NCBI GenBank assembly: GCA_963772365.1
Contig: CAVYXA010000005.1
Location: 224,001-288,000 of the forward strand
Length of the DNA: 64,000 bases
Source of the DNA: an uncultured Verrucomicrobiae bacterium
GTDB lineage: Bacteria > Verrucomicrobiota > Verrucomicrobiia > Chthoniobacterales > UBA10450
Direction: 5' to 3'
The position numbers and the translations under genes are program-made. Positions 1,789-39,227 of this stretch are shown here, one piece after another. The first letter of the stretch is position 1; each line of letters begins with the position of its first letter. The notes under the pieces were generated by a model. The model did not search any database and was not told the origin of the DNA. It worked only from the letters and a program-made list of their open reading frames with translations.

Positions 1789-2790
1789 ATGGCAAACTTC
1801 GGCATCAACGGCTTCGGCCGCATCGGGCGCAACGTGTTGCGCGCCATGTCACAGAAACAAGTCGAGCGCGTCAGCGCCATCAACGATCTCACTGATACAC
1901 ATACTCTCGCGCATTTGCTTAAGTGGGATTCGGTCCACGGCAAGTTCGACGGCGAGATTGGCTACGATGACGAGAACATCGTCGTGCGCGGTCACAAGAT
2001 CCGGATTTTCAAGGAACGCGACCCGGCGAATCTTCCCTGGAAGAAACTCGATGTCGATGTTGTGCTGGAATCGACCGGCTTTTTCACCGCGCGCGACAAG
2101 GCCGAGCTGCACATCAGCAAAGGCGGCGCGAAACGGGTCTTAATCAGCGCACCGGCGAAAAATCCCGACGCCACGATTTGTATCGGAATCAATGACGACG
2201 TTTACGATCCGGCCAAGCACACCATTGTTTCAAACGCGAGCTGCACGACGAATTGTCTCGCGCCGTTGGCCAAAGTAATGCACGAAAAATTTGGCGTGGC
2301 TCACGGATTCATGAGCACGATCCACAGCTACACCAATGACCAGCGAATTCTCGATCTTCCACATGATGACTTGCGGCGTGCCCGGGCGGCTGCCATCAGC
2401 ATTATCCCATCAAGCACCGGCGCGGCCAAAGCGATCGGCGAAGTGATCCCCGCGCTGAAAGGGAAACTAAATGGCGGCGCGTTTCGTGTGCCGACACCGG
2501 ATGGTTCCGTCACGGACTTCAGTGCGCTCCTAGAGAAAGATGTCACCGTCGAAGCGATCAATGCTGCGTTCAAAGAAGCTGCAGCGGACAAGAAATACAA
2601 AGGCGTTCTCGAATTCAGCGACGAACCGCTGGTCTCGCAGGATATCGTGGGCAACCCGCACTCGTGCATCTTCGACAGCAAACTCACCATCACGCTCGGC
2701 AACCGGTTCGCCAAAATCGTCGGCTGGTACGATAACGAATGGGGCTACAGCAATCGGTGCGTCGAGATGTTGGAAATGCTGGCGAAGTAG
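1789..2790 (+). CDS. gap: Type I glyceraldehyde-3-phosphate dehydrogenase
   Basis: GINGFGRIGR, SNASCTTNCLAP, WYDNEWGY. Confidence 0.98.
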   Translation: MANFGINGFGRIGRNVLRAMSQKQVERVSAINDLTDTHTLAHLLKWDSVHGKFDGEIGYDDENIVVRGHKIRIFKERDPANLPWKKLDVDVVLESTGFFTARDKAELHISKGGAKRVLISAPAKNPDATICIGINDDVYDPAKHTIVSNASCTTNCLAPLAKVMHEKFGVAHGFMSTIHSYTNDQRILDLPHDDLRRARAAAISIIPSSTGAAKAIGEVIPALKGKLNGGAFRVPTPDGSVTDFSALLEKDVTVEAINAAFKEAAADKKYKGVLEFSDEPLVSQDIVGNPHSCIFDSKLTITLGNRFAKIVGWYDNEWGYSNRCVEMLEMLAK

Positions 2791-2792
2791 CA

Positions 2793-3259
2793 ATCTTGAT
2801 CATGCTCGTGCTCATGATCATGATCGAAGAATGAAGACATATTTCGATCACGAGAAGCTGGATGTTTATCAGGAGGCAATCGCCTTCTGCCGCTGGGTGG
2901 GTGAGTTCATCGGCGGCATCAATGCTAGGCTTGCGGCAAAAGACCAGCTCGATCGCGCTTCCACAAGCATTCCGCTTAATATCGCCGAAGGAAACGGCAA
3001 GCTTTCTAATGCTGATCGAGCACGATTTCTGGAAATAGGACGCGGCTCCGCTCTGGAGTGTGCCGCTTGTCTGGATGTCGTCGTCGCGCGCAGACTCGCT
3101 CAGCCCGATGATATTGTTGCCGCGAAAGAGCAGCTCGTCCGTATTGTAAATATGTTGATGGGGCTGTTGAAACGCTTTTCAGGCCGCGCCGAATTCTTGC
3201 GTGAAGATGAAGCACTTTATCACATCGATCATGATCAGGATCATGAGCATGATCATGAT
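2793..3259. repeat. 35-nt inverted repeat of hexamer units flanking a four-helix-bundle gene
   Basis: Left arm 2793-2827 ATCTTGATCATGCTCGTGCTCATGATCATGATCGA; right arm 3225-3259 TCGATCATGATCAGGATCATGAGCATGATCATGAT. 31/35 Watson-Crick complementary by manual alignment. Confidence 0.85.
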
Positions 3260-3271
3260 GGGACGAGATGA
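2831..3271 (+). CDS. Four helix bundle protein (23S rRNA IVS protein-like family)
   Basis: MKTYFDHEKLDVYQ...DQLDRASTSIPLNIAEG...GSALECAACLD. Start at ATG 2831. Confidence 0.9.
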   Translation: MKTYFDHEKLDVYQEAIAFCRWVGEFIGGINARLAAKDQLDRASTSIPLNIAEGNGKLSNADRARFLEIGRGSALECAACLDVVVARRLAQPDDIVAAKEQLVRIVNMLMGLLKRFSGRAEFLREDEALYHIDHDQDHEHDHDGTR

Positions 3272-4479
3272 GTAAACTCACCCTTCGCGATCTCAACGTG
3301 CGCGGGAAACGCGTGCTGGTGCGGGTTGATTTCAATGTTCCCACCGATGTTCACGGAGGGAAGTTTCGAATCACCGATGACACCAGAATTCGGGAGAGCT
3401 TGCCCACGATCAATTATCTTCGCGAGCACAAGGCCAAGACGATTTTGATGTCGCATTTTGGTCGGCCTAAAGGGAAACCGGTCGATAAATTTTCGCTGCG
3501 TTCAATAGGCGATCATTTGCATTCGCTCATTCATCATCCGGTGATTTTCAGCCACGACACGATCGGGAACGTGCCGAAGACAATCATCGAGTCGATGCAG
3601 GAAGGCGATGTCGCTTTGCTGGAAAATGTGCGGTTCCAGCCGGAGGAAGAAGCCAACGATCCGAAGTTTGCCGAAGCCCTGGCCAATTTGGGGGATCTTT
3701 ATGTGAATGATGCTTTTGGTACGGCGCATCGCGCTCATGCTTCGACGGCTGGCATTACGAAGTTCGTGAAGCAATCGGCGATGGGCCTGTTGATGGAAAA
3801 GGAGCTGAAATATCTGCGGGAAGAATTGACCAAACCAAAAAAACCATTCCTCGTGATCATGGGCGGCTCGAAAGTTTCCGATAAAATAGGTGTGCTCAAA
3901 GCCCTCATGGAAAAAGCTGACACCATCCTGATCGGGGGCGCGATGGCGAACACGTTTTTCAAAGCGCAGGGGATTCCGATCGGTGAAAGCCGGGTCGAGT
4001 CTGACAAAGTCAATCTCGCGAATGAAATTGTCGATCTTGCCAAAGAACGCGAAGTGAAATTTGTGTTGCCCGTCGATGTCGTCGAAGCGGAAGAAGTTCA
4101 ATCGGGTGCGTCCATGACGAACACGAGCCGGCTTTCGCCGGAACATGGCGTCCGCGACGGCTGGCACGCGGTCGATATCGGCACGGCGACAATCGCGTTG
4201 TATCAGGAAGAGATAGCCAAGGCGGAAACGATTTTGTGGAACGGTCCGCTGGGCGTTTTTGAAATTCCCGAATTCGCGGAAGGCACCATAGCAATCGCAG
4301 AAGCTCTCGCGCAATGCGGTGCTACCACGATCATCGGTGGTGGTGATTCAGTCACAGCAGTAAAGCAAGCAGGCTTGGCCGACAAAATGACGTTTATTTC
4401 GACCGGCGGCGGTGCGTCGCTTGAATTATTGGAAGGCAAGGAACTGCCTGGAGTCGCAGCATTATCGGATAAATCTTAG
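3268..4479 (+). CDS. pgk: Phosphoglycerate kinase
   Basis: VRVDFNVP, NDAFGTAHRAH, STGGGASLELLEG. Confidence 0.98.
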   Translation: MSKLTLRDLNVRGKRVLVRVDFNVPTDVHGGKFRITDDTRIRESLPTINYLREHKAKTILMSHFGRPKGKPVDKFSLRSIGDHLHSLIHHPVIFSHDTIGNVPKTIIESMQEGDVALLENVRFQPEEEANDPKFAEALANLGDLYVNDAFGTAHRAHASTAGITKFVKQSAMGLLMEKELKYLREELTKPKKPFLVIMGGSKVSDKIGVLKALMEKADTILIGGAMANTFFKAQGIPIGESRVESDKVNLANEIVDLAKEREVKFVLPVDVVEAEEVQSGASMTNTSRLSPEHGVRDGWHAVDIGTATIALYQEEIAKAETILWNGPLGVFEIPEFAEGTIAIAEALAQCGATTIIGGGDSVTAVKQAGLADKMTFISTGGGASLELLEGKELPGVAALSDKS

Positions 4480-4486
4480 GGCTTTC

Positions 4487-5251
4487 ATGAGAAAGAAAAT
4501 CATCGCGGCGAATTGGAAAATGAACAAAACGCAGGCCGAGGCCGAGCGTTTCATCGAGAGCTTCCTGATCGAGATCGGCGACAATCGTGATGCCGAGATC
4601 GTGATCATTCCGCCGTTCACGGCGATCGCGAAGGTGAATGAGGCGTTAGGCAAAGCGCAACACATCAAGGTAGGCGCGCAAAACATGCACTGGGAACCCC
4701 ACGGCGCATTCACCGGCGAGATCTCCGCTTCCATGCTGCGCGATTTGTTCGTGCGCTATGTCGTGCTCGGCCATAGCGAACGGCGGACCTTGTTTGGCGA
4801 AACCGATAAAATCGTAAACCGGAAAGCGCGAGCCGCACACGACTCGGCATTGCGCCCGATTGTGTGTGTCGGGGAAACACTTGAGCAGCGCGACAAGGGA
4901 AATGTGGATAAGATATTGTCGATCCAGCTCCGCGGAAGTCTGGCTGGTCTCGAGGCGAAACAATTACAGGAGACTGTGATTGCGTATGAGCCGGTCTGGG
5001 CGATCGGCACCGGTCGCAACGCTACGCCGGGTGAGGCTCAAGATGCACATGCCTTTATCCGACAGGTGATAGGCGAGATGTCCGATGGCGCGACGGCCGA
5101 CAGAATTCGGGTCCAGTACGGCGGAAGTGTGAAACCCGAAAATGCGCGCGAGCTGATGTCGCAACCGGACATCGATGGCGCGCTAGTTGGAGGGGCCAGT
5201 CTCGAACCGCGCAGCTTTGCCGAGATTGTAAAGGTAGCGAGCGAGCAATAG
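4487..5251 (+). CDS. tpiA: Triosephosphate isomerase
   Basis: AANWKMN, AYEPVWAIGTG, YGGSVKPEN, DGALVGGASL. Start at ATG 4487. Confidence 0.98.
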   Translation: MRKKIIAANWKMNKTQAEAERFIESFLIEIGDNRDAEIVIIPPFTAIAKVNEALGKAQHIKVGAQNMHWEPHGAFTGEISASMLRDLFVRYVVLGHSERRTLFGETDKIVNRKARAAHDSALRPIVCVGETLEQRDKGNVDKILSIQLRGSLAGLEAKQLQETVIAYEPVWAIGTGRNATPGEAQDAHAFIRQVIGEMSDGATADRIRVQYGGSVKPENARELMSQPDIDGALVGGASLEPRSFAEIVKVASEQ

Positions 5252-5332
5252 CGGATTCAACGGGCTGTTTTGTGGCCGACTTGCTCGTTGGTCTTGCAAT
5301 CTGTCCAATCCTATAAATCCTGTCTGGAGATC

Positions 5333-5792
5333 TCTTCCTCTTCCTCTCCCTCTTAATCTTGATCCGAACATTAATCTCTATGCCGTTCCATCACGAAAAG
5401 CTGACCGTCTATCGACGAGCGTTAGAATTCGCGACTTGGTCGCAAATTCTCATCGACTCATTAACTAAAACGACCTCGACCCGCGATCACTTGGAGCGTG
5501 CCGGCGACAGCATTGCGTTGAATATCGCCGAGGGAAACGGCAAATTCTCACAGACAGATCGGGCCCGTTTTTTCCAGATCGCACACGGCTCGGCTCTTGA
5601 GTCCGCAGGATGCCTTGATCTTCTGGTCGCGCGAGGCTGTTGTGAAGGCGATGCAATCGTGAAAGGCAAAGCGCTGCTGGAAGAAATCGTAAAGATGCTT
5701 TTTAAGATGCTTGATCAACTGGGCTGCAGGATCGCGAAAGATGCGCCCGGCTACGGGGAGGCAGCAGACGAAGAGGAAGCGGAAGAGGAAGA
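5333..5792. repeat. 22-nt inverted repeat of hexamer units flanking the second four-helix-bundle gene
   Basis: Left arm 5333-5354 TCTTCCTCTTCCTCTCCCTCTT; right arm 5771-5792 AAGAGGAAGCGGAAGAGGAAGA. 20/22 complementary. Confidence 0.8.
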
Positions 5793-5796
5793 TTGA
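5380..5796 (+). CDS. Four helix bundle protein, second paralogue
   Basis: MPFHHEKLTVY...HLERAGDSIALNIAEGNGK...GSALESAGCLD, clearly homologous to 2831..3271. Confidence 0.9.
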   Translation: MPFHHEKLTVYRRALEFATWSQILIDSLTKTTSTRDHLERAGDSIALNIAEGNGKFSQTDRARFFQIAHGSALESAGCLDLLVARGCCEGDAIVKGKALLEEIVKMLFKMLDQLGCRIAKDAPGYGEAADEEEAEEED

Positions 5797-5798
5797 TC

Positions 5799-6329
5799 AT
5801 GGCAATCACCGTTCCACGACCGAAGCTGAATTGGCGTGAGCGCCTTTATCTTCCGGCAATTTTTGCCGGCCTGGTGATCACCTTCAAACATTTCGTGAAC
5901 ATGCTGCTCGGTCGCACCAAGGTGACCATGCAATATCCGGAAGAGAAATGGGATTCGAATTTGCCCGATCACTATCGCGGTGCGCCCGCTCTGGTGAGAG
6001 ATGCCGATGGTCGGGTGCGCTGCGTCGCGTGTCAGCTTTGTGAATTCATCTGCCCACCGCGTGCGATCAAGATTGTCCCAGGCGAAATTCCATCGACCGA
6101 TCGGTTTGCCAAAGTCGAGAAACATCCCGAGGAATTCGATATCGACATGATCCGCTGCATCTTTTGCGGGATGTGCGAGGAGGTTTGTCCCGAGCAGGCG
6201 ATTTTTTTACGAAAAGATTACGCCATCACCGGTTTCACTCGCGAAGAGATGGTGTATCGAAAAGACAAGCTGATCGAGATCGGCGGAGTGATGCATGGCG
6301 TCGTTTTGAAATGGAATGAAAAGAAGTGA
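5799..6329 (+). CDS. nuoI: NADH-quinone oxidoreductase subunit I
   Basis: Two CxxCxxCxxxCP motifs and TMQYPEEK. Confidence 0.95.
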   Translation: MAITVPRPKLNWRERLYLPAIFAGLVITFKHFVNMLLGRTKVTMQYPEEKWDSNLPDHYRGAPALVRDADGRVRCVACQLCEFICPPRAIKIVPGEIPSTDRFAKVEKHPEEFDIDMIRCIFCGMCEEVCPEQAIFLRKDYAITGFTREEMVYRKDKLIEIGGVMHGVVLKWNEKK

Positions 6330-6330
6330 G

Positions 6331-6409
6331 GCCACAGCTTGACACAGATGTTCGCCGATTTTTCAGATTTCGATCTTACATCTGTGTTTGATCTGTGTTC
6401 ATCTGTGGC
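6331..6409. repeat. Empty inverted-repeat element (ACACAGATG-type 9-mer units) between nuoI and nuoJ
   Basis: GCCACAGCTTGACACAGATG ... CATCTGTGTTTGATCTGTGTTCATCTGTGGC. Confidence 0.8.
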
Positions 6410-6416
6410 TTGAAAA

Positions 6417-6920
6417 ATGTCTGCATTTCTTTTCTGGATATTCGCGATCATGATGCTGGTGTTCGGCGCGGCCGTGATCATCGTGCGCAATCCAGTGGCC
6501 AGCGCGCTGAATCTGGTGATGTCGTTCCTCGGGCTGGCAGCGCTTTTCATTTTGCTCGATGCTTACTTCATCGGCATCATCCAGGTCCTCGTTTATGCCG
6601 GAGCGGTGATGGTGCTGTTCCTTTTCATCATCATGCTTTTGAACCTGCGGGCCGAGGAAGCGCGACGAATCAACTGGCCGACCGGTATGGGGGCGATCGC
6701 GGTCGGTCAGCTTCTGATGTTCCAGATTTTTTTTGTCGTCGCGCATTTTAAAGCCGCCGCGCAACCATTTCCGCCGTTACCAACATCGACAATCGATGAC
6801 GTCCGAAACGTCGGCGCCTTGTTGTTCGCCAATTACAATCTGCCATTTCAGATCATTGGCGTGCTGGTGCTCGTCGCCACAATTGGCGTAGTTCTTCTGA
6901 GCAAGCGCGAAACGAAATAA
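6417..6920 (+). CDS. nuoJ: NADH-quinone oxidoreductase subunit J
   Basis: QVLVYAGAVMVLFLFIIMLL. Confidence 0.95.
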   Translation: MSAFLFWIFAIMMLVFGAAVIIVRNPVASALNLVMSFLGLAALFILLDAYFIGIIQVLVYAGAVMVLFLFIIMLLNLRAEEARRINWPTGMGAIAVGQLLMFQIFFVVAHFKAAAQPFPPLPTSTIDDVRNVGALLFANYNLPFQIIGVLVLVATIGVVLLSKRETK

Positions 6921-6933
6921 GATGAAACTTTTA

Positions 6934-7037
6934 GCCCGCGAATCACGCGAATGCGCGCGAATGAGAGAGATGCAAAAGCCCACTCTCAAGCTCAGCTCAT
7001 ATCTATTTCTTCGCGTCTATTCGCGTGATTCGCGGGC
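6934..7037. repeat. Empty inverted-repeat element (CGCGAAT units) between nuoJ and nuoK
   Basis: GCCCGCGAATCACGCGAAT... / ...ATTCGCGTGATTCGCGGGC, a perfect 19-bp terminal complement. Confidence 0.9.
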
Positions 7038-7049
7038 CGAAAGAATAGC

Positions 7050-7370
7050 ATGATTACACTCGGACAATACCTGATCGCCAGCGGAATTTTGTTCGCAATC
7101 GGATTTGCCGGAGTGATCCTGCGTCGAAATCTCATTGTCATTTTGATGTCGCTCGAATTGATGTTGAATGCGGCCAATCTCTCGCTGGTGGCGTTCTCCC
7201 GATTTCGTGTCGATCCAACTGGTATGCCGAATTACAACGCGCAGGTCTTCGTTTTTTTCATCATCACCGTGGCGGCGGCTGAAGTCGCCGTTGGCCTTGC
7301 CATCATCGTAGCTCTCTATCGCCTCCGCCAGACCACCGATGTAAAAGACATCAGCAGTTTGAAATTTTGA
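7050..7370 (+). CDS. nuoK: NADH-quinone oxidoreductase subunit K
   Basis: [22 protein letters not shown]. Confidence 0.95.
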
Positions 7371-7851
7371 GCCCGCGAATCACGCGAATCAAAGCGAATT
7401 ATGACGGAAATCATTCATAGGAAAGAAAGTTACGCGATTATCGGGGCCTGCTTTGAGGTCTACAATGATAAGGGCTGTGGGTTTCTCGAACCGGTTTATC
7501 AGGAATGTCTCGGCATCGAATTTGAATACCAGCGGGTACCAGCGATTCCTAAACCGTTCCTCACCCTCAATTACCGTGGACGTATTTTGACACAAACTTA
7601 CGTGCCGGATTTCGTTTGCTTCGAAAAAATTATCGTTGAACTGAAAGCGGTATCGGCCCTAATCGACGAGCACCGGGCTCAGCTCCTGAATTACCTGCAC
7701 GCCACCGGCTTCGAGCTAGGCCTATTAGTGAATTTTGGCCATTACCCGAAACTTGAACATGAACGCATTGCAAAGACTCGGTACATACCACCAAAATCCG
7801 ACTTTTCAGATGTGTCTTTGTAAATTCGCGTTAATTCGCGTGATTCGCGGG
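7371..7851. repeat. Filled inverted-repeat element (same CGCGAAT arms) enclosing the GxxExxY gene
   Basis: Left arm 7371-7400 GCCCGCGAATCACGCGAATCAAAGCGAATT; right arm 7823-7851 AATTCGCGTTAATTCGCGTGATTCGCGGG. Confidence 0.9.
7401..7823 (+). CDS. GxxExxY protein (PD-(D/E)XK-like nuclease superfamily)
   Basis: GFLEPVY signature, PDFVCFEKIIVELKA and QLLNYL...GLLVNFG. Confidence 0.92.
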   Translation: MTEIIHRKESYAIIGACFEVYNDKGCGFLEPVYQECLGIEFEYQRVPAIPKPFLTLNYRGRILTQTYVPDFVCFEKIIVELKAVSALIDEHRAQLLNYLHATGFELGLLVNFGHYPKLEHERIAKTRYIPPKSDFSDVSL

Positions 7852-7859
7852 TCAATCCA

Positions 7860-9656
7860 ATGAATTCAATCTTGCCATGGATCATTCTGCTCGCGCCGCT
7901 GGTATCCGCGGTGATGATCACCGTCTTTACACTTCGCTCGAGAAAATTGAGCAGTTTCATCTCGGTCGCGGCTGTGTTCGTGAGTTTTGTCTGCAGTTGT
8001 TTGCTGTTCGTTCGAGGAAATCTTCCCGCTGTCGAGCTGAACTGGATCGACATTAGCGGCGGCCTGAGTGTTCCGCTCGGATTCCTATTAGATCAATTGA
8101 GCAAAACAATGCTCGTTCTGGTGTCGGGCGTTGGTTTGATCATTCACATTTATTCGCTCGGCTACATGCGCGGCGATGATGGCAAATCCCGCTATTTCGC
8201 CGGTCTGTCGCTCTTCATGTTCGCGATGCTCGGGATCGTCCTTTCGAACAATTTCGTCATGCTCTTTATTTTTTGGGAGCTGGTCGGCTTTACCTCCTAT
8301 TTGTTGATTGGGCATTGGTTTGAGCGGAACGCAGCTGCGGACGCCGCGAAGAAGGCTTTCATCACGACCCGAATCGGCGACTTCGGATTCATGCTGGGCA
8401 TCCTCATGATTTGGATGCCGACGGGCTCCGTGGTTTTTTCCGAACTGGCCGAGCGGATGTCGATCCTGACAGATCATCCCGCCTATGTGACTGCTGCCGC
8501 GCTTTTGATCTTTTGCGGTGCAGTTGGGAAATCGGCCCAATTTCCGCTGCACGTGTGGTTGCCCGACGCCATGGAAGGTCCGACACCGGTTTCGGCGTTG
8601 ATCCACGCCGCGACGATGGTGGCAGCGGGAGTTTACATGCTGGCGCGCGTCGGGTTCATCATTCAAACCTCGCCAGCGGCTCTCGCGGTTATCGCATGGA
8701 TTGGCACCATCACCGCGCTCATGGCCGCGTTGATGGCGACGCAGCAGGACGATATCAAACGCATCCTGGCCTATTCTACTCTCTCGCAACTTGGTTACAT
8801 GGTGATGGCAATCGGGCTGACCTCGAGCAGCGCGGCCATGTTTCACCTTTTTACCCACGCATTTTTCAAAGCGCTGCTCTTTCTCGGCGCCGGTTCGATC
8901 ATCGTTGCGCTGCATCACGAACAAGACATTTGGGAAATGGGCGGCCTTGCGCGGAATTTGAAGTTAACGTTCGTCACCTTTTTGATCGGCGGACTTGCCC
9001 TCATGGGTTGCCCACCGTTCAGCGGATTTTTCAGTAAGGATGCAATCCTGGCGCTGGCCTACGAAAAAAACATGCCGATCTTCGTGCTCGGCCTCGGCAC
9101 GGCGTTTCTGACTGCCTTTTACGCGACGCGGATGTTGGTGGTCGTGTTCTTTGGCCATCCGCGCGGGCATGCTGCGCGGGTGAGCCGGGAGTCACCGCTT
9201 GTCATGACCCTTCCCCTGATTGCGCTCGCCGGGCTCGTGATTCTGAGCAGCATCGAATCTTTCAATCAACGATTTCTTCCGCTCCCGACCGAAAGCGGGG
9301 CGTCTCGAAATGTCCTGCTATTAGCCACCGGTGCATTGGTTTTCGGTGCAGGCCTGGCGATCTTGTTTTATCGTGGGCGCGCCACCGAGGCGGTGCACGT
9401 CAATCTTCTCCGGCGCCGTTTTTACATCGACGACTTTTATCAGTGGTTGATTCACTGGACGCAGGACCTGCTCGCGCGCGTTTCAGCTTTTTTTGATCGC
9501 TGGATTATCGACGCCCTAGCCGTGCGCGGCACCAGTGGCGGAACATGGGGAATCGGTGCCGTGCTTCGGCTCATTCAGGTCGGTAATCTCCAAGCCTATG
9601 CGTTCCTGCTCGGTCTCGGCGTCATTGCCCTGATCTATTTCGCGCTGTCGGGGTAA
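7860..9656 (+). CDS. nuoL: NADH-quinone oxidoreductase subunit L
   Basis: GKSAQFPLHVWLPDAMEGPTPVSALIHAATMV. Confidence 0.97.
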   Translation: MNSILPWIILLAPLVSAVMITVFTLRSRKLSSFISVAAVFVSFVCSCLLFVRGNLPAVELNWIDISGGLSVPLGFLLDQLSKTMLVLVSGVGLIIHIYSLGYMRGDDGKSRYFAGLSLFMFAMLGIVLSNNFVMLFIFWELVGFTSYLLIGHWFERNAAADAAKKAFITTRIGDFGFMLGILMIWMPTGSVVFSELAERMSILTDHPAYVTAAALLIFCGAVGKSAQFPLHVWLPDAMEGPTPVSALIHAATMVAAGVYMLARVGFIIQTSPAALAVIAWIGTITALMAALMATQQDDIKRILAYSTLSQLGYMVMAIGLTSSSAAMFHLFTHAFFKALLFLGAGSIIVALHHEQDIWEMGGLARNLKLTFVTFLIGGLALMGCPPFSGFFSKDAILALAYEKNMPIFVLGLGTAFLTAFYATRMLVVVFFGHPRGHAARVSRESPLVMTLPLIALAGLVILSSIESFNQRFLPLPTESGASRNVLLLATGALVFGAGLAILFYRGRATEAVHVNLLRRRFYIDDFYQWLIHWTQDLLARVSAFFDRWIIDALAVRGTSGGTWGIGAVLRLIQVGNLQAYAFLLGLGVIALIYFALSG

Positions 9657-9667
9657 ATACGTAAGCC

Positions 9668-11146
9668 ATGCTTTTGTTCATTATCTTCTGCCCGTTTGTG
9701 GCCGCCATTTTGATCATGGCTCGCGCGCCGGCGCGAAAGACAGCCCTGGCGGCTTCGGCGCTCACATTGATCGCCACATTATTCCTTTTTGTGACGTTCA
9801 ACAGATCGGCACCAGGTTTTGAGCACGTGACTTCATTCACAATCCTGTCCGATTGGCATTTGCGGTTCACCACGGGCATCGACGGCCTGAACGTGATCAT
9901 GATATTGCTCGCGGCCATTGTCACTGTAGCGGCTGTCTCCTTCACAAGTAAGATCGACAAGTTTGAGAACCAATTCTACGCCTGCCTTCTGTTCATATCA
10001 GGCGGGGTGATTGGCGCATTTGCATCGCTCGATCTCTTTTTCTTTTACGCCTTTCACGAGATCGCACTGATTCCCACTTTTTTACTGATCGGGATTTGGG
10101 GCAGCGGCAATCGCGTGGCAGCCGCGTGGAAGATCACGATCTATCTTGCGGTCGGAAGTTTCATTCTGCTCTTGGGATTGATCCTGCTTTACCAAAGTGT
10201 TCCAGCGGCAACCCGCAGCTTCGACATTCGCGAACTACAGGCCGCGATCGCCACGATGCAACTTCCGGCTAACGCGCAGCATCACGTCTATCTGCTACTT
10301 CTGACCGGTTTCGGCGTTCTCGTGTCGTTGTTTCCATTTCACAGCTGGGCGCCGGAAGCGTACGCCTCTGCGCCTCCGCCTGCCGCGATGTTGCACGCGG
10401 GCGTGCTGAAAAAATTCGGTCTCTACGGTTTGTTGCGGATCGCTCTTCCGCTGCTGCCAGAAGGCGCGCGACACTGGAACCAGGTGCTGATCATCTTCCT
10501 TCTCGGCAACATTATTTACATAGGCCTCGTTACGATCGCTCAGAAACGGCTCGATTGGATGCTCGGCTACTCCAGTGTCATGCACATGGGTTATATTTTT
10601 CTAGGAATTGCCGCCGCCAACACGGTGAGTACGACCGGCGCGGCAACTTTGATCTTCGCTCACGGACTTTCCATCGCGCTGCTTTTTGCCATCGCGGGAG
10701 AAATCCGGAAACGGACCGGCACACTCGTCCTCGATGATCTGGGTGGACTTGGCAAAGTGATGCCGCTCGCCGGGCTGGCGTTTGGTTTGGGTGCATTCGC
10801 TGCGATCGGTCTTCCCGGCTTTGCCAATTTTTCAGGCGAAATCATGATCTTCTTTGGGGCGTTTCGAAAAGGCTGGGAGATAGGCCGTTTTCATGTATTT
10901 CAAATCGCCACTGTGCTCGCGATTTGGGGTGTCGTAATTTCAGCGATTTACATGCTGCGCGCCTACCGCAAAGCATTCATGGGAACGCCGGAGGATGGGC
11001 GAAAGGCATTTGTTGATCTTAGGTCCGGGCTGCGCTGGGCGGTTGCCCTTCTGGTCGTTGCTTCACTCTGGATTGGATTTCACCCGCAATCATTCGTCAG
11101 GGTTCTCACTCCCACTTTCAACGCATATTTCGCCGCGAACCGATGA
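9668..11146 (+). CDS. nuoM: NADH-quinone oxidoreductase subunit M
   Basis: FPFHSWAPEAY, LKKFGLYG, YSSVMHMG; position in operon. Confidence 0.95.
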   Translation: MLLFIIFCPFVAAILIMARAPARKTALAASALTLIATLFLFVTFNRSAPGFEHVTSFTILSDWHLRFTTGIDGLNVIMILLAAIVTVAAVSFTSKIDKFENQFYACLLFISGGVIGAFASLDLFFFYAFHEIALIPTFLLIGIWGSGNRVAAAWKITIYLAVGSFILLLGLILLYQSVPAATRSFDIRELQAAIATMQLPANAQHHVYLLLLTGFGVLVSLFPFHSWAPEAYASAPPPAAMLHAGVLKKFGLYGLLRIALPLLPEGARHWNQVLIIFLLGNIIYIGLVTIAQKRLDWMLGYSSVMHMGYIFLGIAAANTVSTTGAATLIFAHGLSIALLFAIAGEIRKRTGTLVLDDLGGLGKVMPLAGLAFGLGAFAAIGLPGFANFSGEIMIFFGAFRKGWEIGRFHVFQIATVLAIWGVVISAIYMLRAYRKAFMGTPEDGRKAFVDLRSGLRWAVALLVVASLWIGFHPQSFVRVLTPTFNAYFAANR

Positions 11147-12570
11147 TCGCGATTACGGCGCCAATGCTGGAGATCTTCGTGCTCGTATTGGGCATGGGCA
11201 TGCTGATGTTGGAAGCGTTCACTACGAAGATCGACAAACGTTTTCTGGCCTACGCTGGAATTGCTGGTCTCGCGATTGTGTTGATCATCAGTTTCTTTTT
11301 GGCTCCGGCTCCTTCGCCGGAGCACGCGACCGGGTTTTGGAATTTTTACACGGCCGACGCGTTGTCGATCTTCTTTAAACGTTTCGCGCTACTCACCACA
11401 ATTCTGGTGTTGATCATGATGATTGATTACGCGCCGGTGGTTCACGAGTCGTTTCCAGGCCCGGGCCAGTCAGGTCTGGGCGAATTTTTTGCCGTCCCGA
11501 TCTTCACCTGCGCCGGGCTCATGTATCTTGTCTCGGCAATCGACTTCATTTTCATCTTCGTCGCGCTCGAGCTCGTGACGATTTCCTTTTACGTGCTGGT
11601 CAGTTTCACGAGAAAGAATCCGGTGACGCTGGAGGCTGGGGTGAAATATCTTGTCCTGAGCGCGCTTTCGACAGCCTTTCTTGTTTATGGAATCACCTGG
11701 CTGTTTGGCGTAACCGGCCAAACGAATTTGCATCGCATTTCGGTGGCGCTCAGCAACGGTTCCGTCGAGCGCGAACCTGCGCTGTTTGGAATGGTGCTCG
11801 TGTTGGTTGCTGTCGGTTTCAAGATTGCCGCGGTTCCATTTCAGATCTGGGTGCCGGATGTTTATCAGGGCGCGCCGACACCGGTAACTGCATTTCTCTC
11901 AGTCGGATCAAAGGCCGCCGGGTTCGTCGTTTTGCTTCGTGTATTGCAGCCGTTCCTAATGTTGCCGCAAATCCATCGCCTGATCGTTTTGATTGCGCTG
12001 CTCACGTTGATCTACGGCAATCTCTCTGCGCTGCCGCAACGCAATTTAAAGCGATTGCTGGCATATTCGAGCATTGCTCATGCTGGCTATCTGCTAATGG
12101 GGGTGGCCTCGTTCGACGGCCGGGCAGTGTCGTTCTACTTGGTGGCTTATATGACGATGACGCTATTGAGTTTTGCCGTTTTGATCATTGTCGCCCAACA
12201 AACCGGCGAAGAGATCGCCGATTTCGATGGATTAGCCGCGCGTTCGCCATTCCTCGCTTTTGCGATGTTGATAGGAATGATTTCGCTGGCGGGTGTTCCT
12301 TTCACCGGCGGATTTCTCGGAAAATTTTTCATCTTCTATGCAGCGCTCGCGCAGGGGCAGATTGCGCTTGTTGTTGTCGGTGTCATCGCCGTGGGCTGCG
12401 GATTTTATTATTATTTGAAAGTAATCCGCGCGATGTATTGGCAGCCGGCGGCGAAGATCGACAAAATTTCCGTGAGCAATCTTTCTCGGGTCGCCATCAT
12501 CGGCTTGATTATCGCAACGATTTGGCTGGGTGTATTCCCGCAGCCAATTCTGGACGCGTTAAGGCGCTGA
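11143..12570 (+). CDS. nuoN: NADH-quinone oxidoreductase subunit N
   Basis: FKIAAVPFQIWVPDVYQGAPTP, KRLLAYSSIAHAGY. Confidence 0.97.
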   Translation: MIAITAPMLEIFVLVLGMGMLMLEAFTTKIDKRFLAYAGIAGLAIVLIISFFLAPAPSPEHATGFWNFYTADALSIFFKRFALLTTILVLIMMIDYAPVVHESFPGPGQSGLGEFFAVPIFTCAGLMYLVSAIDFIFIFVALELVTISFYVLVSFTRKNPVTLEAGVKYLVLSALSTAFLVYGITWLFGVTGQTNLHRISVALSNGSVEREPALFGMVLVLVAVGFKIAAVPFQIWVPDVYQGAPTPVTAFLSVGSKAAGFVVLLRVLQPFLMLPQIHRLIVLIALLTLIYGNLSALPQRNLKRLLAYSSIAHAGYLLMGVASFDGRAVSFYLVAYMTMTLLSFAVLIIVAQQTGEEIADFDGLAARSPFLAFAMLIGMISLAGVPFTGGFLGKFFIFYAALAQGQIALVVVGVIAVGCGFYYYLKVIRAMYWQPAAKIDKISVSNLSRVAIIGLIIATIWLGVFPQPILDALRR

Positions 12571-12573
12571 AGA

Positions 12574-12640
12574 GTTAAAAAGTTAAAAGGTTACAACGTT
12601 ACAAAGGAGATTTCCCTTTTTAGCTTTGTAGCCTTTTAAC
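12574..12640. repeat. Empty inverted repeat of 8-mer units after nuoN; possible terminator between convergent genes
   Basis: GTTAAAAGGTTACAACGTTACAAAGG / CCTTTTTAGCTTTGTAGCCTTTTAAC, with 2 G-U pairs and 2 mismatches. Confidence 0.75.
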
Positions 12641-18223: not shown

Positions 18224-19402
18224 ATGGGAATGTGGATAGGCCGGAACCGAAAAGCCCGCGTCACCTACGGGTTCGACGAGGTCGCGCTCGTGCCTGGCCG
18301 TGTGACAATTAACCCTAACGAGGTGGACACGACTTTTCGTTTGCCGCGAAAGAATGCCGAACCGCTCGGGTTGAAAATTCCGGTCCTGGCGAGTGCCATG
18401 GATGGAGTTGTCGATGTTCGGTTCGCGGTGGCCATGAGCAAGCTCGGTGGTCTGGCTGTGTTGAATCTCGAAGGAATACAAACCCGCTACAAAAATCCGC
18501 AGGAAGTTCTGCAAAAAGTAGTCGAGGCGGACAAATCGGAAGTCACTTCGCTCCTGCAGAAAATTTATCAGGAACCGATTCAAGAAAATCTCATTGCGGC
18601 GCGGGTCCGACAAATTAAAGATGGCGGAGCAGTAGCGGCGGTGAGTTCCATCCCGCAGCGGGCGGCGGAATTTGGTCAGATTGCGCAAGAGGCCGGCGCG
18701 GATGTTTTCGTCGTCCAAAGCACTGTTTCCACTGTGCGCCACATTTCATCGGAGTACAAATCGCTCGACTTGGAAAAATTTTGCCGGGAAATGCGCATTC
18801 CGGTCATTGTCGGGAACACGGTCGGCTATGATGTGACGTTTGAAATCATGGAATGCGGCCCGGCCGCGGTGCTGATCGGTGTGGGACCCGGCGCGGCGTG
18901 CACTTCCCGCGGCGTGCTCGGACTCGGTGTCCCGCAGGTCACTGCTACGGTAGATTGCGCGGCGGCGCGCGACGCTTATTTCAAGAAGACCGCGCGTTAT
19001 GTTCCGATCATCACCGATGGCGGAATGAGCCGGGGCGGCGATGTCTGCAAAGCGCTGGCTTGCGGCTCGGATGCAGTAATGATCGGCAGCGCCTTTGCCA
19101 GAGCGCAAGAAGCACCCGGATGCGGCTATCATTGGGGAATGGCCACGCCGCATGCCAATCTGCCGCGTGGGACACGCATCAAAGTCGGAACTACCGGCCC
19201 ATTAAAACAGATTCTTTTCGGACCGGCAGAAGTTGATGATGGCAGCCAAAATCTCGTCGGCGCGATTACGACCTGCATGGGAAATGTAGGCGCGCGAAAT
19301 CTGGCTGAGTTCCAGCAAACCGAAGTCATCATCGCGCCTTCGATCCGGACCGAAGGCAAGCTTTTCCAGACCGTGCAAAGCGTTGGGATGGGGACAAGCT
19401 GA
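18224..19402 (+). CDS. GuaB3-family IMP dehydrogenase-related protein
   Basis: YGFDEVALVPG, GVGPGAACTSR, DGGM, HWGMATPH; no CBS domains. Confidence 0.9.
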   Translation: MGMWIGRNRKARVTYGFDEVALVPGRVTINPNEVDTTFRLPRKNAEPLGLKIPVLASAMDGVVDVRFAVAMSKLGGLAVLNLEGIQTRYKNPQEVLQKVVEADKSEVTSLLQKIYQEPIQENLIAARVRQIKDGGAVAAVSSIPQRAAEFGQIAQEAGADVFVVQSTVSTVRHISSEYKSLDLEKFCREMRIPVIVGNTVGYDVTFEIMECGPAAVLIGVGPGAACTSRGVLGLGVPQVTATVDCAAARDAYFKKTARYVPIITDGGMSRGGDVCKALACGSDAVMIGSAFARAQEAPGCGYHWGMATPHANLPRGTRIKVGTTGPLKQILFGPAEVDDGSQNLVGAITTCMGNVGARNLAEFQQTEVIIAPSIRTEGKLFQTVQSVGMGTS

Positions 19403-19407
19403 AGCCC

Positions 19408-19521
19408 ATTTAGCGATTTTAGCGATCTGAAGATTTAGAGATTCGCTCTTGATCTCGCCTTAAATCGCTAAACCATTAAATCGCCTGATCTTTAAATCAC
19501 CAAATCGCTAAACTGCTAAAT
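19408..19521. repeat. Empty inverted-repeat element of 8-mer units (ATTTAGCG / AAATCGCT) between guaB3 and fabF
   Basis: ATTTAGCGATTTTAGCGATCTGAAGATTTAGAGAT pairs imperfectly with ATCTTTAAATCACCAAATCGCTAAACTGCTAAAT, with extra units in between. Confidence 0.8.
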
Positions 19522-38540: not shown

Positions 38541-39227
38541 GTGACTCCGCTCGAGGAACGTATCGGTTACAAATTTCGCAATCCGCTTTTACTAGCGGAG
38601 GCGCTTACTCATCCGAGCCTCGGCCACGAAACCCAGCGTTATCATTTCGATAATCAGCGCCTGGAATTTCTCGGTGATGCGGTGCTCCAACTCGTGGTCA
38701 CGGAGTATCTCTTTCAACACTTCAGCGCGGAAGCGGAAGGTCGTCTCACCAAACTGCGTTCGCGCCTCGTTTCGCGCAATACACTAAAGGAGCATGCCGC
38801 TGCCCTCGACCTGGGAAGTCATCTCCTCCTGGGCCGTGGCGAAGAAGCCAGTGGCGGCCGGAAACGAGCATCGACATTGGCCGATGCATTCGAAGCATTG
38901 ATCGGCGCGATTTATCTGGATAGCGACCTGGAAACGGCAAAGAAATTCATCCTCGACCAGGCTCGCGCAGACCTCGAGCAAATCGCGGAAGAACCCGTCG
39001 ATATCAATCCCAAAGGGCATTTACAGGAATTACTACAAAGCATCTCGCCGCGCAGTCCGGAGTATCAAGTCGTTTCCCAAAGCGGGCCCGAGCATGAAAA
39101 GACGTTCGTCGTCAAAGTCGTGTGGGAGGGAATCGAGTTGGGTCAGGGCAGCGGAAGGAGTAAGAAACAAGCGGAGACTGCGGCGGCGATCGAGGCGATG
39201 GATTTGAGACGCTGGGAGAAAAGATAA
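38541..39227 (+). CDS. rnc: Ribonuclease III
   Basis: NQRLEFLGDAVL, ADAFEALIGA and a dsRBD. Confidence 0.97.
   Translation: MTPLEERIGYKFRNPLLLAEALTHPSLGHETQRYHFDNQRLEFLGDAVLQLVVTEYLFQHFSAEAEGRLTKLRSRLVSRNTLKEHAAALDLGSHLLLGRGEEASGGRKRASTLADAFEALIGAIYLDSDLETAKKFILDQARADLEQIAEEPVDINPKGHLQELLQSISPRSPEYQVVSQSGPEHEKTFVVKVVWEGIELGQGSGRSKKQAETAAAIEAMDLRRWEKR

Follow-up and report, generated by a model that had tools for sequence, protein, structure and literature searches.

The closest described counterparts of the elements considered here are the intervening sequences (IVSs) of 23S rRNA, which are defined in part by their removal from the transcript through RNase III with no ligation afterwards. 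As described in PMC4990558, ORF-bearing IVSs occur in Coxiella burnetii (helix 45) and Leptospira, and their stem is cut by RNase III; the element described there has 428 nt and a terminal stem of 28 bp, with tandem heptamers just upstream of the ATG of a PF05635-family ORF read in the sense of the transcript. According to the same account, IVSs have been known for more than 35 years, and their origin and function are still not agreed upon. The Correia repeat enclosed elements (CREE/NEMIS) of Neisseria are described in PMC2649163 as bound by RNase III and either cleaved or protected, with changes in adjacent expression. As for the encoded proteins, the PF05635/TIGR02436 family includes the Avd-like fold of a DGR accessory protein (PMC10053308), and PF13366 was given as "function unknown" in a 2012 superfamily survey (PMC3424549); these families, like TIGR04256, which goes with PF13366, are defined for proteins and are not descriptions of cassettes. 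A literature search for the operon-junction cassette type described below found no paper on it.

In the window, that is, the whole 64,000-nt stretch analyzed, the ORF-bearing stem cassette type known from rRNA IVSs is wedged between operon genes. Five stems begin 0-13 nt past a stop codon and finish 6-12 nt ahead of the next ATG, with one exception on the left side given below. Three of them hold a co-oriented small gene (two of the four-helix-bundle family PF05635, one of the GxxExxY family PF13366), and two are remnants without a gene. The likeness to the 23S IVS, in the features given in PMC4990558, extends to the size of about 430-490 nt (here the whole cassette of arm, ORF, and arm totals about 470-490 nt), the complementary terminal arms with a stem of about 28-35 bp, the short tandem repeats directly ahead of the ATG (heptamers in the IVS), the sense-oriented PF05635/S23p four-helix-bundle ORF (cassettes 1 and 2, on the + strand as is the operon), and the decay-prone ORF in a stem that persists. 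The long terminal stem and the sense S23p/PF05635 ORF following tandem repeats are thus present, whereas the location in 23S rRNA is not: the elements lie between protein-coding cistrons rather than in an rRNA helix (helix 9, 25, or 45), one of the three cassettes has a GxxExxY PD-(D/E)XK gene, and the product of cleavage would be a split mRNA rather than a split rRNA. No insert is present in the 23S rRNA of the genome itself, whose single detected gene measures 2874 nt for model positions 1-2925. With CREE/NEMIS, as portrayed in PMC2649163, the elements share the small size, the bounding inverted repeats, and the position beside or between genes; however, the Neisseria elements are ORF-less, exist as numerous near-identical copies sharing a conserved core, and can create promoters, whereas here the arms are mostly locus-specific, the copy number is low, and the loop is filled by an ORF. 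A Correia-type or other MITE, defined by many near-identical copies with one terminal consensus, was therefore rejected, and, unlike in a DGR, no reverse transcriptase or variable repeat is found near the cassettes.

All features located below are on the + strand. The left arm of cassette 1 (2793..2827, GATCAT-type hexamer units) starts 2 nt past the stop codon of the gap gene (2788-2790) and pairs with the right arm (3225..3259), which finishes 8 nt ahead of the pgk ATG at 3268; the 35-nt arms are 89% complementary. The enclosed ORF (2831..3271) encodes a four-helix-bundle protein of 146 aa (PF05635, 6.1e-22; TIGR02436, 2.2e-20) that matches XCC0516, a pentameric four-helix-bundle protein of solved structure (PDB 2GSC, 1.6e-8). 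Its His/Asp-rich C-terminal tail is encoded by the right arm, and its stop codon, TGA, shares bases with the pgk ATG (ATGA at 3268). Cassette 2 is similarly built, with pyrimidine CTCTTC-type units in the left arm (5333..5359), a right arm (5766..5792) finishing 6 nt ahead of the nuoI ATG at 5799, and 27-nt arms of 85% complementarity; its ORF (5380..5796) for a four-helix-bundle protein of 138 aa (PF05635, 3.1e-19; also TIGR02436) has a Glu-rich tail encoded by the right arm and stops 2 nt ahead of the nuoI ATG. The two proteins score 78.3 and 69.6 bits with PF05635 (cut-off 33.8) and 72.9 and 64.0 bits with TIGR02436 (cut-off 24), which places them in the family. In cassette 3, the left arm (7372..7400, CGCGAAT-type units) starts 1 nt past the nuoK stop codon, which ends at 7370 (the first arm base may also be set at 7371), and the right arm (7823..7851) finishes 8 nt ahead of the nuoL ATG at 7860; the arms, of 29 nt, are 93% complementary. 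The ORF (7401..7823), encoding a 140-aa GxxExxY protein of the PD-(D/E)XK family, occupies the loop exactly, beginning on the base that follows the left arm and ending on the first one of the right arm, and belongs to its family by both models (PF13366, 1.4e-37, 129 bits against a cut-off of 22; TIGR04256, 5.4e-37, 126.7 against 35).

The stem-loops without a gene fill their spacers. One, with CACAGATG-type units and a fold of -30.1 kcal/mol, lies between nuoI and nuoJ (6330..6410), 0 nt past the nuoI stop codon, which ends at 6329 (helix from 6330/6331), and 6 nt ahead of the nuoJ ATG (right end 6409/6410, ATG 6417); it falls under the threshold of the gapless scan. The other, between nuoJ and nuoK (6928..7043; arms of 34 nt, 85% complementary; fold of -62.4 kcal/mol), follows the nuoJ stop codon ending at 6920 (arm core from 6934) and closes at 7037-7043 before the nuoK ATG at 7050. 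Its arm type is that of cassette 3, and it is probably what a deletion has left of a GxxExxY cassette: N-terminal pieces of GxxExxY survive here in relatives L005 and L010. Two further elements are a stem without a gene (19408..19519, TTTAGCGA-type units) between a guaB3-like gene, whose stop codon ends at 19402 (repeat arm from about 19408), and fabF, and an operon-end hairpin (12582..12640, GTTAAAA/GTTACAA-type units) 11 nt past the nuoN stop codon. On rechecking the sequence, the distances of 0-13 nt on the left and 6-12 nt on the right given in the initial annotation were borne out, and so were the overlap on the fabF side, where the repeat units reach right to the ATG at 19520, and the exception on the tpiA side, where 81 nt separate the stop codon at 5251 from the arm at 5333. 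The inserts are indeed enclosed by the arms in such a way that a closed helix would place stop and start codons 1-30 nt apart.

Comparison with published relatives identifies empty sites. The nuoJ-nuoK spacer of 22/27 relatives measures -1 to 6 nt, and that of four others is filled with 136-325 nt; for nuoK-nuoL, 19/27 have -6 to 16 nt and eight are filled, six of which have a GxxExxY gene. Between nuoH and nuoI, 0-9 nt are found in 7/17 relatives and stems of at least five arm types, as judged by eye, in 9/17. Within this genome, nuoL and nuoM are 11 nt apart, and nuoM and nuoN overlap by 4 nt. Decay is visible as well: the spacers of L005 and L010 contain fragments of the GxxExxY N-terminus between intact arms, and the nuoI-nuoJ remnants in L004 and L015 have one arm. 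Since this gene order next to nuoI is kept in 0/18 relatives, tpiA-nuoI is not an ancestral junction, and neither it nor gap-pgk offers an empty site for examination. Insertion into native gaps as short as these (-6 to 16 nt) brings the stems close to the codons; this closeness is mainly an outcome of element location, and selection on the stem is not needed to account for it.

We consider it likely that these stems represent the inverted arms at the ends of IVS-like cassettes that have no promoter and are inserted in the sense orientation between operon stop and start codons, the gene-less stems being internally deleted remnants. The basis is the observed anatomy, the empty sites in relatives, the kept pairing, the co-orientation with the operon, and the spread over many phyla. 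In such a cassette, short tandem units would make up the left arm, a small gene, either four-helix-bundle or GxxExxY nuclease-like, would fill the loop, and a complementary right arm would close it. Because the gap that cassettes occupy, from a stop codon to the start codon that follows, measures only a few bases, their arms necessarily abut both codons.

A whole-genome inverted-repeat scan gave 169 raw matches against one in the locally shuffled genome. Of the stems whose arms are made of tandem units, 13/24 have co-directional neighboring genes no more than 30 nt away on either side, as against 15/100 for other inverted repeats, genes outside the window having been called by a simple caller whose start codons may be wrong by several codons. 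Such short spacers make up 1.4% of the possible non-coding insertion points (6034/439154), and the placement of arms relative to codons therefore exceeds chance. Inserts and operon also share their orientation: all 12 gene-bearing stems of the genome are on the same strand as the abutting gene. A second census was keyed on the protein family rather than on the repeat, with arms scored by gapped local alignment relative to 100 shuffles. At p<=0.01, 17/18 loci of this genome have arms, as do, in the phylum, 25/28 GxxExxY and 24/29 four-helix-bundle loci. Among GxxExxY relatives from about nine phyla, 71 of the 78 analyzable loci (80 kept) have the same layout at this threshold.

The window arms of 27-35 nt are 85-93% complementary, with folds of -30 to -62 kcal/mol. 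For seven orthologous cassettes of the cassette 3 type, the terminal helix comprises 29 pairs with 91.5% of cells paired, compared to 30-46% in slid controls. Ten of the 29 pairs are altered on both sides, a level reached in 0/500 shuffles, a control that overstates independence as the seven sequences represent two or three clades. Pairing is thus maintained through compensatory changes. These changes are mostly transversion swaps (A-U to U-A, G-C to C-G), which could come from DNA-level copying of one arm off the other. The initial annotation had seen sense-strand mismatches compatible with G-U pairs, and had expected its RNA reading to fail if G-U pairs had no strand bias. Such mismatches do exist, but no bias was found: there are 17 G:T and 23 A:C mismatches (in the 35/50 stems scorable without gaps), and the folds of 44 stems contain 110 G-U pairs in the sense and 145 in the antisense direction. 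With no sense-strand excess, these data do not demonstrate selection on the sense RNA and fit a DNA-level origin of the pairing equally well.

Under the cassette reading, the arms would pair in the polycistronic transcript into a helix of 20-45 bp. RNase III, encoded in the window by rnc (38550..39200; TIGR02191, 6.7e-74; G000:C5:262550-263200), would cut this helix, an event shown for the rRNA IVS in the description of PMC4990558 and which we infer here. The cut would free the cassette RNA and split the operon mRNA. For as long as the helix is intact, it would hide the regions where the cassette gene and its downstream neighbor start. It is also possible that the cassette's own protein recognizes the arms as DNA or RNA sites. 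The initial annotation, partly supported overall, had offered either a loop-out of the insert or a processing site, and the latter is the better-founded half, because the design is homologous to the rRNA intervening sequences that PMC4990558 describes as cut by RNase III.

It is possible, if somewhat unlikely, that the arms act only as DNA, as inverted repeats which bound a small mobile element and are read by the cassette protein or by a host enzyme, with the RNA helix as a functionless by-product. The missing G-U asymmetry fits this alternative, and so does the link between arm design and gene family, which holds across phyla: C[AG]C.[AG]A-type units and a CC[AG]C terminus are common to GxxExxY arms, while four-helix-bundle arms are G-rich heptamers (period 7 in 14 of 16 periodic arms). 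Moreover, the base that ends the unit varies with residue 22 of the GxxExxY protein (T with N in 14/15, A with K in 41/49, G with R in 9/14; the window protein, of cassette 3, has N22), an association which the phylogenetic control, with just one independent pair on supported branches, left unconfirmed. One arm type may also be found at differing junctions across genomes, and differing types at one junction. On the other hand, the orientation is strictly in the sense of host transcription (gaps in the phylum and cross-phylum censuses being measured on the same strand), which a DNA-only element would need just for expression of its gene, and the gene-less remnants retain both orientation and pairing. 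In addition, the low copy number (12 + 6 loci in the genome) and mostly locus-specific arms, with any arm type common to at most two or three loci of this genome, are unlike those of active MITE families, and reading by eye gave no clear target-site duplication at the window junctions; in L013 and L010, the sequence just beyond the right arm is a diverged copy of the ~20 nt that end nuoK.

A broader version of the cassette reading, which we put forward tentatively and regard as doubtful, is that these elements form a large cross-phylum class of mobile cassettes homing specifically to operon stop-start junctions. The small protein would read the arm units of its own element, the transcript helix would make insertion nearly cost-free through RNase III excision or stop-to-start passage of ribosomes, and the 23S IVSs would be the subset that landed in rRNA. 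If so, the elements would correspond, in bacteria, to an unspliced "mRNA intervening sequence".

That the closed helix loops out the insert as its selected function, the ribosome restarting at the downstream ATG across the helix base so that coupling is kept and insertion is nearly harmless, seems unlikely to us. Stable stems are known to loop out RNA so that flanking translation signals cooperate, as with the hairpins that join split translation signals in phage T4 genes 38 and 25 and with ribosome shunting over a stem in cauliflower mosaic virus; those stems loop out tens of bases in one leader, whereas here the looped-out part would be a whole gene of ~400 nt between two cistrons. The 14 tight junctions of the genome have summed gaps of 1-30 nt, the ordinary intercistronic range, the native junctions are of the coupled type (0-16 nt or overlapping), well-paired arms outlast deletion of the enclosed gene, and compensatory change conserves the helix. 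However, insertion into tiny spacers already accounts for the geometry, the G-U strand bias is absent, and helices of 20-45 bp and -30 to -60 kcal/mol reaching to 0-12 nt from the ATG would bury the downstream start. Furthermore, the ORFs of cassettes 1 and 2 run through the right arm and end on or beside the host ATG, which implies relay coupling with the stem open, not closed; a cassette ORF bridging the gap would offer such a relay route. The one-armed nuoI-nuoJ remnants show that loss of pairing is tolerated.

Finally, host regulatory hairpins evolved in place (terminators, attenuators, or mRNA-stabilizing structures), with the small genes as unrelated passengers, are highly improbable: the stems are located in transcribed spacers, and two at operon ends (12582-12640 and C3:774519) may protect 3' ends, but the stems have no following T-run, the same junctions are empty in most relatives, arms and gene travel jointly across phyla, and arm types at one junction differ among species of the same genus. 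An intrinsic terminator (G+C-rich stem, small loop, T-run) was rejected, as the terminator search of 2600-8000 gave seven sites with 6.8 expected, that is, no enrichment, and no arm among them.

If the rRNA IVSs are the rRNA-resident minority of a larger operon-junction family, their natural history becomes explicable. PF05635 and PF13366 are, to our knowledge, very common families without a known function, and the cassettes would give both a testable role, namely action on their own repeat arms. The cassettes would also be a natural experiment on the structure tolerated at a translationally coupled junction, and recognizing them would account for many "hypothetical" small genes and odd hairpins in essential operons of uncultured soil bacteria.

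Long inverted repeats occur in five spacers of the gap-to-nuoN stretch within the first 12.6 kb of the window, three of them enclosing a small gene and two forming a stem-loop only. The host genes, all on the plus strand, are gap (1789-2790), pgk (3268-4479), tpiA (4487-5251), and nuoI, J, K, L, M, and N (5799-12570). Cassettes 1 and 2, located between gap and pgk and between tpiA and nuoI, carry co-oriented genes of the four-helix-bundle 23S-rRNA-IVS (intervening sequence) family (2831-3271, PF05635 6.1e-22, and 5380-5796, PF05635 3.1e-19, respectively; both TIGR02436), and cassette 3, between nuoK and nuoL, carries a co-oriented gene of the GxxExxY PD-(D/E)XK family (7401-7823, PF13366 1.4e-37, TIGR04256). 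The stem-loops without a gene lie in the nuoI-nuoJ (6330-6410) and nuoJ-nuoK (6928-7043) spacers; a further gene-less stem follows nuoN (12582-12640) and another precedes fabF (about 19408-19519). The stem after nuoN is built of GTTAAAA-type units, and in this genome a hairpin with such units also lies between nuoJ and nuoK of the second complex I operon (contig C3, 378841-378907).

The initial annotation placed these arms directly against the stop and start codons of the host genes, and all its coordinates hold on the sequence. The distance from the upstream stop to the left arm is 0-13 nt, and that from the right arm to the next ATG is 6-12 nt; at fabF the repeat reaches the ATG itself, and the tpiA side, 81 nt from the stop, is the exception. 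This placement is more than chance. A genome-wide scan yielded 169 raw inverted repeats with a score of at least 16, compared to one in the locally shuffled genome, and merging of the raw matches left 124. Among the 24 repeats with tandem-unit arms, 13 are located between co-directional genes and have no gap above 30 nt on either side, and in 22 at least one of the gaps is this short, the starts of genes beyond the window being those of a purpose-made caller and possibly wrong by a few codons; insertion points within co-directional spacers of 0-30 nt make up only 1.4% of those in non-coding DNA. For the remaining repeats, which belong to REP/MITE-like families, the corresponding numbers are 15/100 and 55/100. 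These include high-copy hairpin families with a common sequence (for instance, at C1:402447, C1:1233032, C1:836049, C1:1429537, and C1:1726122), and 13 of the 100 lie inside called genes. One tandem-unit stem (contig C4, 153862-153930) is situated between two divergent start codons, 5 and 15 nt away, which is at odds with siting at operon junctions unless one of the gene calls is wrong.

For comparison, the nuo junctions of 27 relatives with published genomes, from the same family and order, were examined; the two loci that come from unpublished genomes are not part of any count. The nuoJ-nuoK junction is empty in 22 of these 27 (-1 to 6 nt), filled with 136-325 nt in four, and 28 nt long in one more. 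The nuoK-nuoL junction is empty (-6 to 16 nt) in 19 and filled in eight, six of which have a GxxExxY gene between arms. Further, nuoH-nuoI, as read by eye, is empty (0-9 nt) in 7/17 relatives and contains stems of at least five arm types in 9/17, and a nuoI-nuoJ stem of -19.8 kcal/mol or better was found in 14 of 26, with units that vary by lineage, even between both species of the window's genus. In the window genome, the nuoL-nuoM (11 nt) and nuoM-nuoN (4-nt overlap) junctions are still empty. Since an element entering a junction of a few bases has no other room, its arms abut both codons. Thus the insertion site accounts for the closeness to stop and start, and selection on the stem is not needed to explain it. 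In two loci from other genomes (L013 and L010), the final ~20 nt of nuoK recur in diverged form, as read by eye, past the right arm of the nuoK-nuoL cassette; this copy is possibly a long target duplication or a retained nuoL start region. At one junction, the window genome has a broken GxxExxY cassette (C1:1337120-1337591) where the sister species (L172:2249-2408) shows a four-helix-bundle remnant, and these different cassettes at the same position point to fast cassette replacement.

In none of 18 relatives was gap-pgk-tpiA detected beside nuoI, with about 6 kb flanking nuoI examined and nuoI itself found in 17. The sister species has nuoH immediately upstream of nuoI, and the upstream flanks of other relatives end in conserved coding sequence. 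In the window genome the complex I operon is split, with the genes through nuoH on contig C1 (1335137-1340392) and nuoI-nuoN following gap-pgk-tpiA on contig C5, either because the genes were genuinely rearranged or because the assembly was joined at a repeat. On its left, cassette 2 thus borders a join that is specific to the lineage, or possibly one made in assembly, and on its right the ancestral contact with nuoI is kept. As the tpiA-nuoI order is absent in relatives and the right side is ancestral, the distance of 81 nt fits the insertion-site explanation.

The stems without a gene are remnants of cassettes. In two relatives (L005 and L010), recognizable N-terminal pieces of a GxxExxY gene remain between intact arms at nuoJ-nuoK, and in the window the nuoJ-nuoK stem and the nuoK-nuoL cassette have the same arm type. 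The association of arms with the two gene families was assessed in a census, with loci chosen for their protein family and not for a repeat, and arms scored by gapped local alignment against 100 shuffles; RNA duplexfold was discarded for this purpose, as it over-extended the pairing. Searches by tblastn with the three window proteins caught only part of the paralogs, and family searches gave 12 PF05635 and six GxxExxY loci in the window genome. Arms were significant (p<=0.01) in 17 of these 18, with both gaps of at most 30 nt in 12 of the 17. Across the phylum, significant arms flank 25/28 GxxExxY loci (both gaps within this limit in 14 of the 25) and 24/29 four-helix-bundle loci (13 of the 24).

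In a scan with each species represented by one genome, 588 relatives of the window's GxxExxY subfamily were identified. Among the best 80 of these loci, 78 were analyzable, 71 had significant arms, and 37 of the 71 had both gaps of at most 30 nt; the query was a six-sequence subfamily alignment, a broad 24-sequence alignment having no conserved stretch, so this result applies to one GxxExxY subfamily. According to the record titles, the best 80 come from Verrucomicrobiota, Planctomycetota, Acidobacteriota, Nitrospirota, Kiritimatiellota, Lentisphaerota, Armatimonadota, Desulfobacterota, and Eisenbacteria, the closest being from Chthoniobacterales and Candidatus Udaeobacter. Arm design goes with the gene family: arms of four-helix-bundle genes are rich in G on their sense side (G 0.36, C 0.14) and heptameric in 14 of 16 periodic cases, and GxxExxY arms have periods of 8-9 nt, units of the C[AG]C.[AG]A type, and a CC[AG]C terminus. 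On one contig labeled Nitrospirota (L095), the GxxExxY gene is 79% identical to that of the window and has nearly the same CGCGAAT-type arms, a likeness due to either horizontal transfer or mis-binning of the contig. Three loci of Planctomycetota and Kiritimatiellota (L122, L138, and L157) contain the right-arm type in the left flank and the left-arm type in the right flank, as if the cassettes stood in tandem arrays.

Of the systems known, the rRNA IVSs and the Correia elements come closest. The rRNA IVS and the window elements have a common design but not a common site. The 23S gene of the window genome is without an insert, and location in rRNA, the one defining feature of an IVS, is lacking in the window elements. 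In one account, Correia elements of Neisseria have inverted repeats at their ends and are cotranscribed, and RNase III binds or cuts them (PMC2649163); as characterized there, they lack a gene, and their copies are numerous and uniform, unlike the gene-bearing cassettes considered here. A survey of the nuclease superfamily, where it lists PF13366, enters the family as of unknown function (PMC3424549). We found no description of IVS-type cassettes in mRNA spacers in the freely accessible literature.

The interpretation given in the initial annotation finds partial support, as the helix proposed there to join stop and start is real and conserved. In seven orthologous nuoK-nuoL cassettes, the terminal helix of 29 pairs is 91.5% paired, with 10 pairs altered on both sides, few of them independent because the cassettes form two or three clades; none of 500 shuffles matched it, and slid controls were 30-46% paired with 0-2 two-sided changes. 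The terminal helix is thus shown to be maintained, and in the window genome the strand of gene-bearing stems is that of the abutted gene in 12/12 cases. The stem may act by processing, as DNA only, or by coupling. In the operon transcript, the arms are predicted to pair on the sense strand into a helix of 20-45 bp (-30 to -74 kcal/mol). A long helix of this kind is a standard substrate of RNase III, and the enzyme of the same genome (38550-39200) would be expected to cut it, setting the cassette RNA free and splitting the operon mRNA. A scan for terminators and promoters (window 2600-8000) detected nothing at the stems.

It is also conceivable, though rather doubtful, that the arms matter only at the DNA level. 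Several mismatches are G-U-compatible on the sense strand, as stated in the initial annotation, but G-U pairs are not enriched there, which counts against an RNA-specific reading. Of 50 stems folded, 44 had a sense-strand energy below -20 kcal/mol, and in these there are 110 G-U pairs on the sense strand versus 145 on the antisense strand; mean stabilities are -47.0 versus -48.1 kcal/mol, with 21 stems more stable as sense and 23 as antisense (Wilcoxon p = 0.27). Mismatches, scorable by a gapless finder in 35/50 stems, are G:T in 17 and A:C in 23 cases (p = 0.43). The impression of a bias probably came from the window stems, as the sense strand is slightly more stable in four of five. A further hint comes from an association between the base that ends the arm unit and residue 22 in the GxxExxY protein: in 79 loci, T occurs with N in 14/15, A with K in 41/49, and G with R in 9/14 cases, although on a quick tree (eight changes of base state, seven of residue state) supported branches hold one independent pair only. 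The window protein has N22 (codon 7464-7466) and units ending in T. The association may mean that the cassette GxxExxY protein also reads its own arms.

Finally, the proposal that a closed helix loops out the insert, so that the ribosome passes from stop to start, is unlikely, as a helix coming as close as 0-12 nt to the host ATG would hide the start region downstream, one-armed remnants exist in other genomes (L004 and L015), and the reading frames of cassettes 1 and 2 run through the right arm, the former to overlap the host start (ATGA at 3268) and the latter to stop 2 nt ahead of it. Such endings suggest instead a translation relay with the stem open.
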